DNA of 64,000 bases from assembly GCA_034189385.1 (NCBI GenBank), contig JAXHVD010000013.1, forward strand, positions 1 to 64,000, written 5' to 3'. This stretch comes from Thermodesulfobacteriota bacterium (GTDB lineage: Bacteria; Desulfobacterota; Desulfobacteria; Desulfobacterales; C00003060). The position numbers and the translations under genes were made by a program. Below the pieces are notes generated by a model. The model did no database searches. It was given only the letters and a program-made list of their open reading frames with translations, and was not told the DNA's origin. Every line of letters begins with the position of its first letter. The first letter of the stretch is position 1. Below are positions 42,266 through 51,709 of this stretch, piece after piece.

Positions 42266-42623
42266 AATATCACCTCCCAATCTTCTGTTTCACGGTTGGG
42301 GCCGCTGATTCTCAACGAATCGCAAACCCATTCTTGCATCGGATGTATGGCAAAGTGCGTGCCATCATTCCAATATATTGATAATATTGATATTGTCCCA
42401 GTTGCTGAAATCCGTACAGGAACTGACGGTTCCGATTTAAGGCCCGGTGGCCACATCACGAAGGAGTGGGCCAGCGTATGTGCTCCAATCAACTGGAATA
42501 ACGAAGGATACACGAATGTGAACTGTAGATTCCGCTTTTTGCCACATAGGAATTGACAGTTCTTATATGCGGCTGGTCAAGGGGCAATGGGCGGCAAGAA
42601 CTGAGCTACAACGGAGGCATCAT

Positions 42624-43691
42624 CTAGCAAGAGAGATCGAATCCAAGCCCCGGTTTGGTGCTTGGAAAAAGGGTCCCGTCACGTAGCGTTACCGCACCGG
42701 CAGAAGGGTCGTTCACCAGGCCCAGGTGGCCGTCCAGGTCAGCGTAGACCACATTGGGACGGGCCAATGCAAAGTGCAGGCCTGCGCATATGGCCAAGGC
42801 GGCCTCGTCTACGCATCCCACCATCACTTCCAAACCTGCTGAGCGGGCAACCGCATTGACTTGGAGGGCTTCGGAGATGCCTCCCACCTTCATGAGTTTC
42901 ACATTTACCATGTCAGCCAATTCTTGTTGTGCAATCCGAAAGGCGTCCCGGAGAGTCATGAGACTTTCATCTGCCATGACCGGAATAGGAACCACGCTCG
43001 TAACGCGACCGAGCAGGTCTGGTTGGCCTTTGGGCGTAGGCTGCTCAATAAGCTCCAGATGGGCTTGACGCGTGCTTTCAACAAACCTGAAACATTGTTC
43101 TACTGTGAACCCTTGATTGGCATCAAAACGCAACGCTACCTCATTGCCCATGGCTTCTCTGACCTTGAGCACGCGTTCAATGTCAGCATCCACATCACGG
43201 CCCCCCTTCAGCTTTAGGCTTCTGAATCCTCTTGCCGCAAACTCCCGTGCCCGCTCTACTGTTTCTGTCACAGACAAGATGCCGATGGTGACGCTGGTTT
43301 CTATACGATTACGGAATCCGCCCAGGAGCTTCCAGACGGGGAGATTAGCCGCCTTTCCAAGGAGATCATAGAGCGCCATGTCTACTGCGGCCAGGGCGGA
43401 GGATTGAGCGGTTATGCTTCGTTTCTGTCGCTCCAAAATCATGGCCACCCGAAGGGGGTCTGAGCCCTTTATAGATGGAGCGACACAGTCCTCCAATACC
43501 TGAATGACGCTCTCCACGGTCTCGCCTGTGACAGTTTCATCCGGAGCTGCACAGCCATAGCCGGAAAGCCCGTTGGCTGTTTCTATTCGAAGAAAAACGT
43601 TTTTCACAGCTTCAACGGTCTGATAAGCAATCGTGTAAGGTTCAGAGAGCCGCATGGAGACCGGCCAGACATCTAGCTTAGTGATTTTCAT
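42624..43691 (-). CDS. Enolase-superfamily dipeptide epimerase (L-Ala-D/L-Glu epimerase / DgcA-like racemase)
   Basis: KLK, DANQG, EQP, DES, VKLMK, DLD motifs. Confidence 0.88.
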   Translation of the reverse strand: MKITKLDVWPVSMRLSEPYTIAYQTVEAVKNVFLRIETANGLSGYGCAAPDETVTGETVESVIQVLEDCVAPSIKGSDPLRVAMILERQKRSITAQSSALAAVDMALYDLLGKAANLPVWKLLGGFRNRIETSVTIGILSVTETVERAREFAARGFRSLKLKGGRDVDADIERVLKVREAMGNEVALRFDANQGFTVEQCFRFVESTRQAHLELIEQPTPKGQPDLLGRVTSVVPIPVMADESLMTLRDAFRIAQQELADMVNVKLMKVGGISEALQVNAVARSAGLEVMVGCVDEAALAICAGLHFALARPNVVYADLDGHLGLVNDPSAGAVTLRDGTLFPSTKPGLGFDLSC

Positions 43692-43695
43692 AGCC

Positions 43696-46101
43696 CTAAT
43701 ATCGCCTCTGGTAGAGTTCCTCTAATGTCATGCTCTTGAGATCCTCCACAAATTCTACCAAGTTCATTATCATCCTCTCCCACATGCGCCTCCCTTTCTC
43801 TGCAGTGGCCCTTGTGGGGTCGCCCAGGACACCGGAAGGAGAAATCCTGGCGGTGTGGGTATACCATGTCACGCTCCTTTTAGAGGTGAAATTGAGATAC
43901 GTGCTTGAGAATCTAGGGACGAACTTCTTTGCGGCTTCAAGTCTTACGACCTCAGGGCGAACCGCCAAGGTGGTGCTGGTCTCGATCTCCCCGGCATGGA
44001 CATCGTTCGGGGTTTCCGCCATGGCGTAGATGTCGGGATCGCTCGTCTCACCGGTGTCAACGCAGGTGAAAATCTGGGCATCTCGGTTGATCATCTGTGC
44101 GGCAAAATGCAGGGCTGGACCGTTTCCTCCATGTCCGTTGATGATGACCAGTTTTCTGGCGCCGTGACGGGCAATGCTCATACCTATGTCATAGACGAGC
44201 CGTGACAGCGTCTCCGGATTCACGCTGATGGTGCCACTGAAGTCTTCGTGGTGGTAGGAAACACCATATGGGATTAAGGGAAGAACAATAGGCCTCGGCT
44301 CGCTGCACGCCTTTGCCACCTCATGGGCCAGATACTCGGCATCAAAGGCATCGGCATCTAGAGGCAGGTGAGGGCCGTGTTGTTCAATGGCACCCACAGG
44401 AAGGAGCGCTACATCCACGGATTTGAATCGCTTTTTTGCTTCAGGCCATGTCATCTGGGCCAATAGGGGGCTGCCCGCAACGCCTTCGTTCTCGTCTCTG
44501 CTGCCATGTTCAACTGAAGACACATCCCCCGGGGGTTCAAAGTGGAACGGTTTCTTGAAGGTGGGGTCTTCGATCGGGTCACATTCCCTCCATGCTTTCC
44601 CAGTGCGCTTCACCGCTCCATCTGCGTGCTCAAGATAAATGCGAAACAACGGTCCACGAAGGTCTGCTGGAATACCGTCAAGCGGAGACTTTTCATCGTG
44701 GAATCGCAGCTTCATCACTTCGTGTCTTGCCCGTGCCTGGGCCGACCGGATGTGGGGTTCGGAAAGAAGGCCTTTTTCATTGAGCAGGAAAGCCACATGC
44801 TCAGCAACAGCGACTTCAGAATGAATTCCCTTGTCCACGAGTCCTGCCAGACAGCGGTCGATCTGGTGGCGCCCGTAACGGCACTGGGCCGGGTCTGCTC
44901 CCAGGGCCAACAGCATTGCCACGATGCGACGGCACTTTTCACAGCGGCCGCAGGGACGAATTTCGTTTCCTTCCTCATGAGTAGCATGGCACGAAACCTG
45001 CTCTCGGTGGAGTTCGGGATAGCGTTCAACTAGAATCTTCTGGACCAGAAGCTCAGACAGAGGCCTGAGTATGGAAAACTGATTGATTCCCCACTGCTTG
45101 CGATGGAAGTACCGGGTGAGGGCGTCGTCGAAGTATCGACTTTGGTCGTATAGACCCGCATAGTGGACAATTCCTTCAAATGACGTCCTGTGGGTTGTGT
45201 CGAACTCATCTCCAATGAGAAGACGGCCAATGCCCCGTTTTCGAATGATGGCCAATGCTCCGAAGATGAAAACGGCTACAGTCCATAAACGAATGGGATA
45301 TTCGTCTGATCGTATTCTCGCAAAATCCGGACGCACAAAGGGAAGATGTCTCAACATCCAGTTGAACACCCTGTCCGAGTTCGTCCACACCCGTGCTGTC
45401 GTCGGAACGGCGGCTACAAAATGGCGGTAAGCATTCAAAGCGGTGAACCAATGTCGGCCAGACTCGTTGATGAATATGGGGTGCACCTCGCAGCCCATCT
45501 CCTGCAAAAGGCCGAAGGTCAGAAGACTGTCCTTCCCTCCGCTTGAAAGGACCGCATGCTTTGTTGAATCTCCGTTCCACTGGCCCATCTTTCTTTTGCC
45601 TCTTTCCCTTCCACGGGAAGGAGGGCTGTCTTGGTCGGGAAAAATGAACTTGGCACGAAGGTAACTCTTTTTCTTAACAGGGGTAAGATTCGTCGTTCTA
45701 TGGAGGAGAAAAGGATTCGGTTGGAGAAACTTCTTCACAAGGATCTCGCGAGCCGTATTGGAGGCCATTTCCCTGATGAAATGCTGGTCTTCTTTGTTGA
45801 ACTGCCCGTGGAACACGATCTCATGGCAGAATAGCCCATAGTTCAGAGCCACCTGCACTCCAATCATTGCTGCAAGATTGATTGAGTCCTCTTCATCTGG
45901 AACGAAGACATCTTCCGCGAACCGGTAGACCAGTTCCATGGTGTCAGGGCTGCCGTTCTTACTCACCCTATAGGGGGTGGTGAGCCGGTTTTTCTCCAGC
46001 CGGACCGGTCCCACCTCGAGCCGTGGGATGACCGCCAAACCCTCCTCCAGCAGGCCGCTTTCAAGGGATGGCTTCTGTTGTCTCGTTTCTTTGTGTGGCA
46101 T
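43696..46101 (-). CDS. Fusion: PP-loop ATPase (QueC/MurL-like) + creatininase-family amidohydrolase
   Basis: LSSGGKDSLL, SCH...CGRCEKC; C-terminal PVGAIEQHGPHLPLDAD, NGHGGN, HAGEIET; start moved to MPHKE. Confidence 0.8.
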   Translation of the reverse strand: MPHKETRQQKPSLESGLLEEGLAVIPRLEVGPVRLEKNRLTTPYRVSKNGSPDTMELVYRFAEDVFVPDEEDSINLAAMIGVQVALNYGLFCHEIVFHGQFNKEDQHFIREMASNTAREILVKKFLQPNPFLLHRTTNLTPVKKKSYLRAKFIFPDQDSPPSRGRERGKRKMGQWNGDSTKHAVLSSGGKDSLLTFGLLQEMGCEVHPIFINESGRHWFTALNAYRHFVAAVPTTARVWTNSDRVFNWMLRHLPFVRPDFARIRSDEYPIRLWTVAVFIFGALAIIRKRGIGRLLIGDEFDTTHRTSFEGIVHYAGLYDQSRYFDDALTRYFHRKQWGINQFSILRPLSELLVQKILVERYPELHREQVSCHATHEEGNEIRPCGRCEKCRRIVAMLLALGADPAQCRYGRHQIDRCLAGLVDKGIHSEVAVAEHVAFLLNEKGLLSEPHIRSAQARARHEVMKLRFHDEKSPLDGIPADLRGPLFRIYLEHADGAVKRTGKAWRECDPIEDPTFKKPFHFEPPGDVSSVEHGSRDENEGVAGSPLLAQMTWPEAKKRFKSVDVALLPVGAIEQHGPHLPLDADAFDAEYLAHEVAKACSEPRPIVLPLIPYGVSYHHEDFSGTISVNPETLSRLVYDIGMSIARHGARKLVIINGHGGNGPALHFAAQMINRDAQIFTCVDTGETSDPDIYAMAETPNDVHAGEIETSTTLAVRPEVVRLEAAKKFVPRFSSTYLNFTSKRSVTWYTHTARISPSGVLGDPTRATAEKGRRMWERMIMNLVEFVEDLKSMTLEELYQRRY

Positions 46102-46112
46102 TAGAATTTCCC

Positions 46113-47192
46113 TTATCGACCTTTGAGGCAGGACAGTACCGTCCTGACAATTGCTTCCGGGCCTTCCAGAAGCATGTCGCAAGCAGGCAGGCCGGTCGCC
46201 TTTCGAATCTGATGGCAGACTCTAGGAACCTGACCTGCTTCTAAACCCTCGTGGTTGACGCATATTGCTACCACCGGCTTGCCGGACAGCAGTTCAATAG
46301 CCTCTATCTGCTTTTCCAGAGGGTGGATGGAATAGCCGGGGAAGCCATCGTACTCTCGCCTGGCGGGGGCGTGTTGAAGCACCACTGCGTCAGGCCTTCC
46401 TGCTGCCAGGATCTCAAATCCACCCGGATAAGCGGGATTCATGAGGCTTCCCTGTCCTTCAATGATGATGACATCGGGTTGCGACTCATGCCAAGCTGTC
46501 CAGATAATGTGTTCAATTTCACCTGACACAAAGTCATTGATGAGGGCGTCAAGGATGATGCCGTAACGGGCACCCTGTATCCACGCCGTTTGCCCTGTCC
46601 CGATGAATTCCGTGTTCCAGCCGGCGGCCTGGAGGGCGTCTACAAGAATCCAGGCCGTCGTTCTTTTGCCAACAGCGGAGTCAGTTCCTAAGACTGCGAC
46701 TTTCAATGCGTTGACTTGTTCTATCTTTCCTTCGAAAAAGTGGAGTCCTTTTCGAGGCGGGCATTTTCTGATGTCGCGAATGATAACTCCATGCTGGGCC
46801 GCGAGGGCTGCAAGGTCGACATCTTCCAGGAGAAAGTCATGGAGCCCAGAGTCCACGTTAAGACCTAGGGTAATGGCTTGGATCACATCTTCACGGGCTT
46901 GGGCGCTGAGCCTCCCGCCATCGGGGGCCAGACCAATGACCAGGTGGGTGGGGTCGGCTCCATCTCTCCTGGCCGCCTCAACAGCCCCGGGAACGTCGGG
47001 ATGGATAGGAATCCCTTTGGCTTGTGCGTCCAACACCATCCCCGCGTCTTTTCCCGCACAGCAAGAGTCCACCACAGAGAGGATCTCATAGCGCCTTGTA
47101 CGTCGCACTAGCCCATGGGCTGTTTTGCCGTTTGGCGTCCCAAAGGCCCCCTCACAGTACACAATGGCGTTGCCTTCTGAGAATAGAGTCAT
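46113..47192 (-). CDS. DUF1611 family protein (D-glutamate N-acetyltransferase DgcN-like)
   Basis: GKTAHGL, SGLH, GTDSAVGKRTT, GTGQT, EGQGS. Confidence 0.85.
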   Translation of the reverse strand: MTLFSEGNAIVYCEGAFGTPNGKTAHGLVRRTRRYEILSVVDSCCAGKDAGMVLDAQAKGIPIHPDVPGAVEAARRDGADPTHLVIGLAPDGGRLSAQAREDVIQAITLGLNVDSGLHDFLLEDVDLAALAAQHGVIIRDIRKCPPRKGLHFFEGKIEQVNALKVAVLGTDSAVGKRTTAWILVDALQAAGWNTEFIGTGQTAWIQGARYGIILDALINDFVSGEIEHIIWTAWHESQPDVIIIEGQGSLMNPAYPGGFEILAAGRPDAVVLQHAPARREYDGFPGYSIHPLEKQIEAIELLSGKPVVAICVNHEGLEAGQVPRVCHQIRKATGLPACDMLLEGPEAIVRTVLSCLKGR

Positions 47193-48319
47193 GATTTCCG
47201 TCCTGTGAGTATAACCACATACCGATCACCAGCAAATGGTGCTTTAGCGTGACGGTCTAGCAGGGAGATTAGCCCTGCCGTGGAGGCTGGCAAAACATTC
47301 AGGCCTTCAAGGTTGCCTAATAATTTTGAAAACGAGAGCATCGCTTTGTCGCTGGCATAGGAGGCCCAGCCCTTTGTGTTCCTGATAGCTTCAAGGGCAT
47401 GATCCCCATCAATAGCATGCCAATTGATGAGAGGTTCGTTTACGCGGGTTTCCCGAATTTGCTCCGGCCTGAGGTCCTCACACAGGAGGGTGTTCTTCAT
47501 ATAAGCCCTCACTATGGGATTCTTACCGTGAGAAGAGCCGGCGAACATGCGGGGCATCCGCGAGGTTTTCCCCCGGCGATAAAGACTGAGGAATCCTTTG
47601 TAGATACCTGCCAGGGTGCTGCCGTTAGAGACGGGCACGGCAACCACCCCGGGGGCATCACGGAGCTCATCGTAGATTTCGTAAGCAATTTCGCCGTAAG
47701 CCTTTGATTGAAGCGCCGTGTTATCACCTCCGGGGTTTGCGTCGTAGAGTTCGTCGGATTCAGCTCTTTCTCGAGAAGCTATGACTGCATTTTCATAGTC
47801 TCCTGGCACCCGGACGATCTCTGCGCCATAGGCAACCATCTCTTGCACGCGTTTCGTGCTGTAGGCCTCTGGAATAAAGATAGTGCAACGCAAACTTGCC
47901 ATGGAGCTAGCCAGCGCTACCGCTACGCCGTAGTTGCCACAGGTAGCTACAGTGATGGCATCGAACCCACGCCGTAAGGCATCCATGGCCTGGACGAAGG
48001 CGATGCGGTCTTTCTGCGTTCCCGTGGGGTTACCTCCTTCGAACTTAAGGTAGATTTGTCTCAAGCCCACTTCACGCTCAATATTTCGAGCCCTTGAAAG
48101 GGTTGTGTCGCCTACCTCTGAATCGACAATGTCCTCATAGGCCTCAAGGCGATCATTCAAAGGTTGCTTTTTGTCTGAAGCCAGCTTTTTCTGCCTTTCC
48201 AACTCGGGGGCAATGATGGGCACCTGAGAGGTTGCCCCATCTACTAGAGAAAGCCGTGAATCATTCATCTCGAATTCCGGCATGGGAGGAGACTCCATTT
48301 CCTTCATAGCAGAGGGCAT
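47189..48319 (-). CDS. PLP-dependent fold-type II enzyme (threonine synthase-like)
   Basis: LKFEGGNPTGTQKDR, TCGNYG, PVSNG, ILTG; 4-nt overlap with the DUF1611 gene. Confidence 0.85.
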   Translation of the reverse strand: MPSAMKEMESPPMPEFEMNDSRLSLVDGATSQVPIIAPELERQKKLASDKKQPLNDRLEAYEDIVDSEVGDTTLSRARNIEREVGLRQIYLKFEGGNPTGTQKDRIAFVQAMDALRRGFDAITVATCGNYGVAVALASSMASLRCTIFIPEAYSTKRVQEMVAYGAEIVRVPGDYENAVIASRERAESDELYDANPGGDNTALQSKAYGEIAYEIYDELRDAPGVVAVPVSNGSTLAGIYKGFLSLYRRGKTSRMPRMFAGSSHGKNPIVRAYMKNTLLCEDLRPEQIRETRVNEPLINWHAIDGDHALEAIRNTKGWASYASDKAMLSFSKLLGNLEGLNVLPASTAGLISLLDRHAKAPFAGDRYVVILTGRKS

Positions 48320-48396: not shown

Positions 48397-48555
48397 TTAC
48401 CTCGGCGAACCCGTTGGTTTGCTCTTGGCCTCTTTGTTCCCCACGCCTTCAGCTCTTGCCAGCTTGTCACATCTCTCTATCAGGCTCTCTATCTGTCCTG
48501 TCACCGCTTTTAGCCCTTCTAACAACCCTTGAAGGTCTCTTTCTATCTTTTTCAT
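48397..48555 (-). CDS. Small coiled-coil hypothetical protein
   Basis: MKKIERDLQGLLEGLKAVTGQIESLIERCDKL, amphipathic heptads. Confidence 0.4.
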   Translation of the reverse strand: MKKIERDLQGLLEGLKAVTGQIESLIERCDKLARAEGVGNKEAKSKPTGSPR

Positions 48556-51218: not shown

Positions 51219-51602
51219 CTATTCTGCTTGCGCCTGTGCAAGGTCGTCATCACCTTGCGGGGTCATGTATGAGCTTTCTTCCTCAGAGGGCTCCTCGGTG
51301 TAAGATTCGTGTTCGTCACCGGTCGGGGCATTTTCGTATCCAGAGCCCTCTTCGCCCTCTTCTGACAACTCTTCTCTGAATTGCTCTTGGTATTCACCCT
51401 CTTTGTACTCCTCTTCACTCTCTTCACTCTCAGAGGCCCATGCATCGGAGCTTTCGAGGAGGCTACCCGCTGTATCTTCCTCATGCATTACCTTTGTTTG
51501 GGTGTCCGACGCTCGCGCCGGCCCTGCGTTCGCCAGAAAAACGAAGACCAGTGATAATAGGATACATAGACATGGGGCCCAGAACCTCTTGCTTACCTTC
51601 AT
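51219..51602 (-). CDS. Secreted, very acidic low-complexity protein
   Basis: Signal peptide ending ARA; Glu/Ser-rich mature part; AAGGAGG RBS. Confidence 0.7.
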   Translation of the reverse strand: MKVSKRFWAPCLCILLSLVFVFLANAGPARASDTQTKVMHEEDTAGSLLESSDAWASESEESEEEYKEGEYQEQFREELSEEGEEGSGYENAPTGDEHESYTEEPSEEESSYMTPQGDDDLAQAQAE

Positions 51603-51693: not shown

Positions 51694-51709
51694 GGCAATT
51701 GCCGTGCCA
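51694..51709 (-). promoter_or_regulatory. Sigma54 -24/-12 promoter (leftward)
   Basis: Minus strand TGGCACGGCAATTGCC. Confidence 0.8.

Follow-up and report, generated by a model that had tools for sequence, protein, structure and literature searches.

A conserved four-gene operon with a MurL-like PP-loop ATPase and a DUF1611 protein: a possible pathway for a basic dipeptide

What is made by a small operon in which a pyridoxal 5′-phosphate (PLP) enzyme, a DUF1611 protein, a PP-loop ATPase fused to a creatininase-family domain and an enolase-family epimerase follow one another almost without spacing? The operon lies in a stretch of 64,000 nucleotides from a Thermodesulfobacteriota bacterium (GenBank assembly GCA_034189385.1, contig JAXHVD010000013.1, positions 1 to 64,000), referred to here as the window. 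We establish its anatomy, its conservation, its modularity, and the folds and residues of its proteins. Our preferred answer, to which we assign a probability of roughly 0.4, is that the operon builds a basic dipeptide, locks it in a D form at the expense of ATP, and recycles it through epimerization and hydrolysis.

The four genes occupy positions 42624-48319 of the minus strand, where all open reading frames were confirmed. Gene 1 (48319-47189, 376 amino acids) encodes the PLP enzyme, gene 2 (47192-46113, 359 amino acids) the DUF1611 protein, gene 3 (46101-43696, 801 amino acids counted from the ATG at 46101) the PP-loop and creatininase fusion, and gene 4 (43691-42624, 355 amino acids) the epimerase. 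Within gene 3, also on the minus strand, residues 1-525 (44527-46101) form the MurL-like PP-loop ATPase and residues 548-785 (43747-44460) the creatininase-family domain. The junctions read from the DNA are an ATGA overlap of 4 nucleotides between genes 1 and 2 (47192-47189), an 11-nucleotide gap between genes 2 and 3 (46102-46112) and a 4-nucleotide gap between genes 3 and 4 (43692-43695), which bears out the tight coupling claimed by the original prediction. The TTG start given to gene 3 by the open reading frame finder (46182) falls within the DUF1611 gene, and in gene 1 translation may really begin at residue 13 (48283), the start used in the Atlas. Pfam recognized PALP in gene 1, DUF1611_N and DUF1611 in gene 2, creatininase in gene 3, and the N- and C-terminal MR_MLE domains in gene 4; the sole curated NCBIfam cut-off passed was that of PRK06381, by gene 1.

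Conservation of the arrangement was evaluated in a scan of GTDB genomes, which found 434 relatives, the best 80 of which were taken for locus analysis. As a control for contig ends, the counts were limited to informative loci, in which the contig leaves room for the gene in question. All five domains stand together in 56 of the 80 loci, in the same order save for one insertion and with median protein identities of 60-71%; the labels of the related loci span more than 10 phylum-level groups. Desulfosarcina variabilis Montpellier is one carrier of the complete operon (L061). Upstream of the ATPase, the PLP gene and the DUF1611 gene were each found in 66 of 67 informative loci. Downstream, the creatininase domain was present in 57, the epimerase in 58 and both in 54 of 61. 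Because these gene neighbours recur from locus to locus, the operon is not a chance assembly. A reciprocal test starting from DUF1611 gave the same picture, the PP-loop gene being adjacent in all seven other genomes with a strong match (301 searched). The PP-loop gene itself is sparsely distributed: of 200 further genomes of the host phylum, 3 had a strong match, and in three other phyla, counting the seed genomes, the figures were 3/301, 15/351 and 17/167, while the PLP gene was found in 2 of 24 other genomes of the host genus. No conserved transporter or regulator was tied to the operon in the 80 loci, and no glutaminase gene stood among the conserved neighbours. Likewise, no conserved target, precursor-peptide or defence gene was detected among open reading frames of at least 90-100 amino acids around 160 loci, and a plasmid comparison gave no match.

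The host genome contains a second full copy of the operon on contig C26, with 83-90% protein identity. Most of this contig (29.5 kilobases) repeats the neighbourhood at 37626-63888 of the window at about 80-93% DNA identity, the repeated block comprising the operon, groEL, a sigma-54 regulator and an acyltransferase; it is either a segmental duplication or a co-binned relative. The same genome encodes a separate ThrC-like protein (C1:163493-165001, from a weak tblastn match and by eye), a separate QueC-like protein on contig C64 (by motif) and MurI (237 bits against a cut-off of 147). Since these functions are provided elsewhere, the operon is accessory and not housekeeping.

A more distant clade of the ATPase revealed how the operon is put together. 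A profile of 20 divergent members retrieved at least 540 metagenome relatives, of which the best 80 were analysed. Judged by eye from their flanking genes, these loci are mostly archaeal, and at least one (L101) has a bacterial appearance; two of the profile's members carry the name Thermoplasmatota. The DUF1611 gene lies upstream in 40 of 41 informative loci and the PLP gene in 37 of 41, and creatininase was found in none of the 80. Instead, 17 of 35 informative loci carry both an M14-like zinc peptidase and an epimerase, 12 of them with the pair on the opposite strand, and the remaining 18 have neither. Pfam support for the M14-like protein is weak, one copy scoring 24.3 bits against 21.6 and another 17.7, and no solved relative was found by sequence. 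A RimI-like GNAT acetyltransferase (81.6 versus 86.4 bits) stands beside the core in 57 of the 80 loci. In bacteria, a separate creatininase gene directly precedes the epimerase in 6 of 12 regions, which were chosen mostly for their stand-alone ATPase. Creatininase and epimerase are both absent from bacterial loci L232 and L233, L085-L087 retain DUF1611 and ATPase only as a minimal unit, and in protein P0124 these two are fused. It follows from this distribution that the constant unit is DUF1611 with the ATPase, usually accompanied by the PLP enzyme, and that hydrolase and epimerase form a detachable arm. The operon thus consists of two modules, a core of PLP enzyme, DUF1611 protein and PP-loop ATPase, and a swappable arm of hydrolase and epimerase.

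One distant locus (L081:71-3720, G130:C89) carries, in a single run, a lysine 2,3-aminomutase, a Ddl-like ATP-grasp enzyme, a distant MurL-like ATPase and a GNAT protein. Its ATP-grasp and aminomutase genes occupy the places that the DUF1611 and PLP genes have elsewhere. By analogy, this single layout suggests that DUF1611 does the job of a ligase, and the locus itself is a candidate beta-lysine peptide pathway. No further locus combining aminomutase, ATP-grasp and PP-loop genes was found in 20 other genomes of the same order or among 36 loci from three other phyla.

We then consider the ATPase at the centre of the core. Residues 1-525 of gene 3 match no Pfam family, carry the motif SSGGKDS at 186-192, and contain the cluster C371/C384/C387/C390, a four-Cys zinc site that is invariant in 81 of 81 aligned sequences. 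The model (predicted local distance difference test, pLDDT, 74) matched QueC and Cap9 with Z 10.6 over residues 179-403, and QatC by Foldseek; for QueC (3BL5), the root-mean-square deviation (rmsd) was 3.8 over 190 aligned residues. No MurL structure was among the fold-search matches, which is evidence neither way. QueC models (Pfam and NCBIfam, E 0.01) did not match gene 3, the domain of which has 525 amino acids against about 230. In the Atlas ranking, MurL clusters (0.95) came directly behind two clusters without names. A homologue search for MurL from protein P0255 returned 6 proteins; the comparison itself used 2 MurL-like proteins, which score about 300 bits where the cut-off is 700; one of them adjoins a murD gene that passes its own cut-off. 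With hhalign, the ATPase aligned to MurL-like proteins with a probability of 96% over 251-300 columns, the N-terminal domain being included in one comparison (best E 2.7e-9, 300 columns, against a two-sequence profile), and to QueC with 81-90% over about 190 core columns only. The comparison with MurL and QueC that the original prediction had proposed is thereby answered in favour of MurL: on these alignments, the ATPase appears to resemble this one-way L-to-D epimerase more than QueC. In a quick tree of 40 rows, the ATPase family formed one group (support 92) and QueC lay on a long branch. By analogy, the family may act like MurL without being a member. According to the available parts of two papers (PMC5808125; PMC8788868), MurL follows the ligase MurD2 and, in an ATP-requiring reaction that liberates AMP, epimerizes in the L-to-D direction only.

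Related families were also encountered. Loci L169-L174 encode another MurL-like family (about 460 amino acids, GGGKDS, NHQWGK) with no murD in the 1.5-kilobase flanks; by eye, some members adjoin genes resembling ergothioneine egtB/egtD or an osmoprotectant ABC transporter. A stand-alone PP-loop family (L082:3082-4443 and L083:5672-7039; FGKDS, SCH...WCHxCxRC) has a weak MurL match and a branch of its own. In protein P0123, a member of the ATPase family is fused to a class I methyltransferase domain at the place where creatininase would be.

The C-terminal part of gene 3 is a predicted peptidase or amidase of the creatininase family of metal amidohydrolases (PF02633, 248.5 bits). Its nearest NCBIfam model is that of the peptidase MftE (TIGR03964), which it missed (161.2 bits, cut-off 172), as it missed the model of creatininase (TIGR04448, 113.7 bits, cut-off 235). 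Residues E573, H575, D584, H657 and E707 are invariant in 73 of 73 sequences, in which the metal motifs E-x-H, D, GHGGN and HAGExE are present and conserved, together with an acidic loop, D682-x-G-E685-x-S-D688-x-D690. With all residues of ligand type conserved, the earlier view that gene 3 joins a PP-loop enzyme of the adenylating kind to a metal amidohydrolase appears sound.

The epimerase bears on the class of the substrate. Its best solved relatives are the dipeptide epimerases 3JVA, 3RIT and 1JPM, and it possesses the KxK motif with a second Lys, the three metal ligands and the DxD motif of dipeptide epimerases of the MLE subgroup; K160, K162, D190, E216, D241, K265, D318 and D320 are invariant in 67 of 67 sequences. 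Position 24 is Glu in 61 of these sequences, Gln in 5 and Gly in 1, position 51 is Asp in 64, and position 295 is Asp in all 67. At the three corresponding positions of the distant clade we found Glu (23/24), Asp (24/24) and Asn (23/24). In 3RIT the specificity positions are R24, E51 and D296, as given in the available part of the SFLD paper (PMC3965090). In the accessible part of a simulation of the B. subtilis epimerase, Arg24 binds the substrate carboxylate and Asp321/323 the alpha-ammonium (bioRxiv 2022.05.01.490185), and BC0371 acts on N-succinyl-Arg according to the portion available of its description (PMC2948282). Since all three specificity positions are acidic, the pocket is ill-suited to a Glu side chain and suits basic residues, and a D-glutamate reading on the DgcN/DgcA plan is unsupported. 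These residues point to a basic dipeptide with a free N-terminal amine, and not D-Glu, as the probable substrate. Gene 4 also stays below the DgcA model (NF042940, 168.6 bits, cut-off 400) and the Ala-Glu epimerase models (229 against 500 and 96 against 343).

The DUF1611 protein is predicted to be an ATP-dependent ligase or an acyltransferase. It has a Rossmann-like N-terminal domain and an intact BioD-type P-loop (GTDSAVGKRT at 169-178, EGQGS at 245-249), the segments GTD-x-A-x-GKRT and G-x-G-S around E245 being conserved in 30 of 30 sequences or nearly so. The model (pLDDT 92) matched three DUF1611 structures with Z 32-40; next came BioD (dethiobiotin synthetase, Z 15.1), formyltetrahydrofolate synthetase (14.1), CTP synthetase (13.8) and cDPGS (13.7), an osmolyte enzyme according to the available part of its source. 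Several ATP-dependent ligases are thus among the closest folds outside DUF1611. DgcN, which alone among DUF1611 proteins has been characterised, is an N-acetyltransferase according to the accessible parts of two papers (PMC12363236, PMC10845958). Gene 2 did not reach the DgcN model (NF041892, 159.9 bits, cut-off 480), and copies from the distant clade scored 169 and 172 bits. A complex prediction for the PP-loop domain and the DUF1611 protein gave a score of 0.00, which counts neither way. Divergent DUF1611 genes also occur amid beta-propeller-repeat genes and without PLP or PP-loop partners (L192:1032-2087 and L193:991-2100).

Taken together, these results do not support the part of the original prediction that placed a DgcN/DgcA pair, converting D-glutamate, at the core of the operon: both genes fall far under the cut-offs (160 against 480, 169 against 400), Glu or Gln replaces the carboxylate-binding Arg24 of the B. 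subtilis Ala-Glu epimerase, and DUF1611 accompanies the PP-loop gene, the epimerase being absent from 18 of 35 informative distant loci. Its broader claims fared better. The neighbourhood comparison (56 of 80 loci with all five domains) supports a conserved, undescribed amino-acid or peptide pathway, and synthesis of a modified amino acid or osmolyte, one of its suggestions, is close to our best reading. Its other suggestion, peptidoglycan recycling, is improbable, given that Thermoplasmatota archaea have the core too and that the conserved neighbours included neither a transporter nor a cluster of murein peptidases.

Gene 1 encodes a fold-type II PLP enzyme (PALP, 184.9 bits) of the PRK06381 subfamily (NF004996, 435.7 bits, cut-off 266), which NCBI labels 'threonine synthase'. 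As had been anticipated, it is not the housekeeping ThrC, scoring 102.4 bits against a cut-off of 167 with the thrC model TIGR00260. Schiff-base Lys103 and the motifs TCGNYG, YDANPG and NEPL are conserved. ThrC (1UIM, 2ZSJ) is the closest solved relative, and the PLP lysine and cofactor loop are retained; however, Thr88, Ser155 and Arg160 of ThrC, which we take to be its phosphate contacts, align to Tyr130, Pro196 and Gln204 of gene 1 (by sequence alignment, with a gap near Arg160), and the genome carries another ThrC-like gene, on C1. No paper on the phosphate residues of ThrC was found in the literature searched. Given these replacements, O-phosphohomoserine is an unlikely substrate. The reaction of gene 1 is the least constrained step of our model.

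How could these activities be combined? In the weakest step, the PLP enzyme, by an elimination or a replacement at the beta or gamma position, would supply a non-standard amino acid from a substrate other than O-phosphohomoserine. The DUF1611 protein, with its P-loop and ATP, would then join this building block to a basic amino acid such as Lys, Orn, Arg or diaminobutyrate. By likeness to MurL, the PP-loop domain would adenylate the C-terminal carboxylate and invert the residue from L to D in one direction. Ordinary peptidases would not readily cleave the D product, which could serve as a stress solute or a nitrogen reserve. Finally, the epimerase, whose family function is established and whose substrate is presumed, would take the D residue back to L, and the creatininase domain would cut the bond. 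The wider claim of a pathway common to both domains, in which a basic dipeptide with a D residue uses stereochemistry as a metabolic lock set by a MurL-like ATP-driven epimerase and opened by a swappable release arm, is bolder, and we regard it as rather doubtful.

Several observations weigh against the basic-dipeptide reading. The similarity to MurL is remote (about 20 bits with NF041275, cut-off 700), the MurL profile was built from 2 sequences only, the quick tree leaves the ATPase family unresolved next to the MurL group, and the relatives solved by fold (QueC, Cap9, QatC) make nitriles or amides, not epimers. An ATP-grasp enzyme takes the place of DUF1611 in 1 locus only. Non-ligase P-loop proteins match gene 2 as well as BioD does (Z 15.2). 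DgcN moreover retains P-loop motifs similar to those of gene 2, so that the motif is no proof of ligase activity and gene 2 may, on these motifs, be an acyltransferase. The arm is not strictly paired, since the epimerase occurs without creatininase in 4 of 61 bacterial loci and the reverse in 3 of 61. The window's own epimerase copy has Gln, not Glu, at position 24. That 3RIT and 2P88 act on basic residues is in part an assumption: we take BC0371 to be entry 2P88, and we likewise presume what Asp51 does and which ligand 3RIT binds. A role as stress solute or store would follow solely from neighbouring genes and analogy.

The nitrile- and amide-forming relatives lead directly to another possible, though less probable, reading, in which the PP-loop domain activates the carboxylate by adenylation and then couples it to ammonia or an amine, giving an amide as the QueC family and the amidotransferase of N-acetylglutaminylglutamine amide (NAGGN) do. 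The product would be a charge-masked dipeptide solute, creatininase would remove the amide, and the epimerase would act in turnover. The top solved folds are indeed QueC, Cap9 and QatC, the GNAT protein adjoins the core in 57 of 80 distant loci, fusion of ATPase and amidohydrolase suits a make-and-break pair, and known peptide osmolytes mask both termini, according to the available part of one source (PMC1224877). However, MurL-like proteins give a better alignment with the ATPase than QueC does, and over a greater length, creatininase accompanies the epimerase rather than the ATPase, the conserved neighbours include no glutaminase gene, and amide formation leaves the source of a D residue unexplained. 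The Cap9 and QatC folds could also fit the tagging of a macromolecule or cofactor (a protein terminus, tRNA or carrier-bound amino acid), with the last two enzymes detaching the tag. QueC-family relatives conjugate to protein N-termini, as far as the accessible text on them goes, and the GNAT partner is nearest RimI (81.6 versus 86.4 bits). The absence of a conserved target, precursor-peptide or defence gene among the open reading frames around the 160 loci argues against such tagging, as does the use of free small substrates by dipeptide epimerases, and we consider it quite improbable.

The structural kinship of gene 2 with DgcN (Z 32.1) and the pairing of hydrolase and epimerase would fit a DgcN/DgcA-style salvage of D-amino acids with basic side chains: DUF1611 would acylate D-Lys, D-Orn or D-Arg, the epimerase would invert the product and the hydrolase free the L-amino acid, with the PLP and PP-loop enzymes feeding or detoxifying related substrates. 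Many hosts are, by their labels, uncultured environmental lineages, which also fits. Salvage is nevertheless unlikely: the epimerase is dispensable and the PP-loop gene constant, the invariant DxD motif calls for a substrate with a free alpha-amino group and not an N-acyl amino acid, no conserved transporter was found in the 80 loci, and the scheme has no role for two of the four genes. Least probable by far is a part in peptidoglycan synthesis or recycling, in which a MurL stand-in would act with an Ala-Glu epimerase and an amidase. The MurL likeness, the dipeptide epimerase and the M14-like peptidase (M14 being, we presume, the family of the murein peptide amidase MpaA) speak for it; against it stand a MurI over its cut-off in the genome, the replaced Arg24 of the epimerase, homologues in Thermoplasmatota archaea, a PLP gene limited to 2 of 24 other genomes of the genus, and the lack of mur genes among the conserved neighbours.

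If the basic-dipeptide reading is right, a MurL-type enzyme would act outside cell-wall synthesis and a DUF1611 protein would be an ATP-dependent peptide ligase. Functions would be gained at once for three families, namely PRK06381, the DUF1611 clade of the operon and the MurL-like ATPase family, for which 2,935 relatives were scored, and neither name would hold for many genes that are now called 'threonine synthase' or taken for DgcN. The metabolite would be a new stress solute or nitrogen store of sediment bacteria and archaea, predicted under more than 10 phylum-level labels besides the archaea, and a source of a D-basic amino acid unrelated to cell walls. The pathway is undescribed in the literature searched: no description of the four-gene operon was found, most subscription papers lying outside the reach of the search, and DUF1611 returned unrelated papers only. 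The available part of the main text of a 2026 QueC-family survey (PMC13329287) contains none of the terms creatinin, MurL, epimerase, DUF1611 and threonine.

The surroundings of the operon show further features. Neighbours that recur without being fixed are, by eye, sigma-54 regulators, groESL, Hsp20 and Mg transporters. A sigma-54 consensus was present upstream of the operon in 6 of 64 loci, compared with 4 of 64 for sites within the gene itself, and at neither copy in this genome; sigma-54 control as a general rule was therefore rejected. In the window, perfect sigma-54 -24/-12 consensus sites at 42350-42364 and 51695-51709 (minus strand) precede an Hsp20 gene, itself before groES-groEL, and the open reading frame at 51602; matches with at most one mismatch number 12 against 5.4 expected. 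An open reading frame of about 52 amino acids (48397-48555, minus strand) separates the operon from the gene upstream of it, and its start resembles that in the C26 copy. Elsewhere, other genes lie ahead of the operon on its own strand: at L084:10967-15936 (G133:C46) those for a Ddl-like ATP-grasp enzyme, a gamma-glutamyltranspeptidase, an N-formylglutamate amidohydrolase and DUF5698, and at four loci (L007, L011, L017, L029) genes that by eye resemble those of polyamine synthesis, namely carboxynorspermidine synthase and decarboxylase, arginine decarboxylase and agmatinase. At L242 (G997:C9) the operon runs in shifted frames across several genes, probably through sequence errors.

The operon can be compared with several characterised systems. 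With MurL (NF041275) the ATPase shares the N-terminal domain, the GGKDS loop, the FS(I/L)LRPLSE motif and the SC...CGxCxKC zinc site, and ligation followed by one-way epimerization, as in the MurD2-MurL route, is its likely logic. It differs in forming a separate clade (20 bits against a cut-off of 700), in its partner, which is DUF1611 and not a MurD, with no mur genes among the conserved neighbours, and in its host, which has MurI, whereas the MurL type belongs to genomes without glutamate racemase; it is also found in archaea, and its predicted substrate is basic, not Glu. QueC, Cap9 and QatC (PF06508 family) share the fold of PP-loop and zinc site, but the operon ATPase has an additional N-terminal domain of about 165 amino acids and an additional C-terminal part, no que genes are among its conserved neighbours, and a separate QueC-like gene lies on contig C64.

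In the DgcN-DgcA pathway, too, a single operon encodes a DUF1611 protein together with an epimerase of the enolase family, and gene 2 has the two-domain fold of DgcN (7XRJ, Z 32.1, rmsd 4.2, 323 aligned residues). Here, in contrast, both genes score under the cut-offs (NF041892, NF042940), DUF1611 is tied to PP-loop and PLP genes, and the epimerase pocket is acidic where Arg24 would stand. The catalytic lysines, metal ligands and DxD motif of YkfB (1JPM/1TKK), 3RIT and 3JVA are all retained in gene 4, which has GCMDE and D/E51 in common with 3RIT; YkfB and 3RIT have Arg at position 24, where the operon epimerase has Glu or Gln. Finally, the NAGGN and N-epsilon-acetyl-beta-lysine pathways resemble the operon as small gene sets in which a ligase, an acetyltransferase or an aminomutase leads to amino-acid-derived solutes, but they employ other enzyme families and neither a D residue nor an epimerase.

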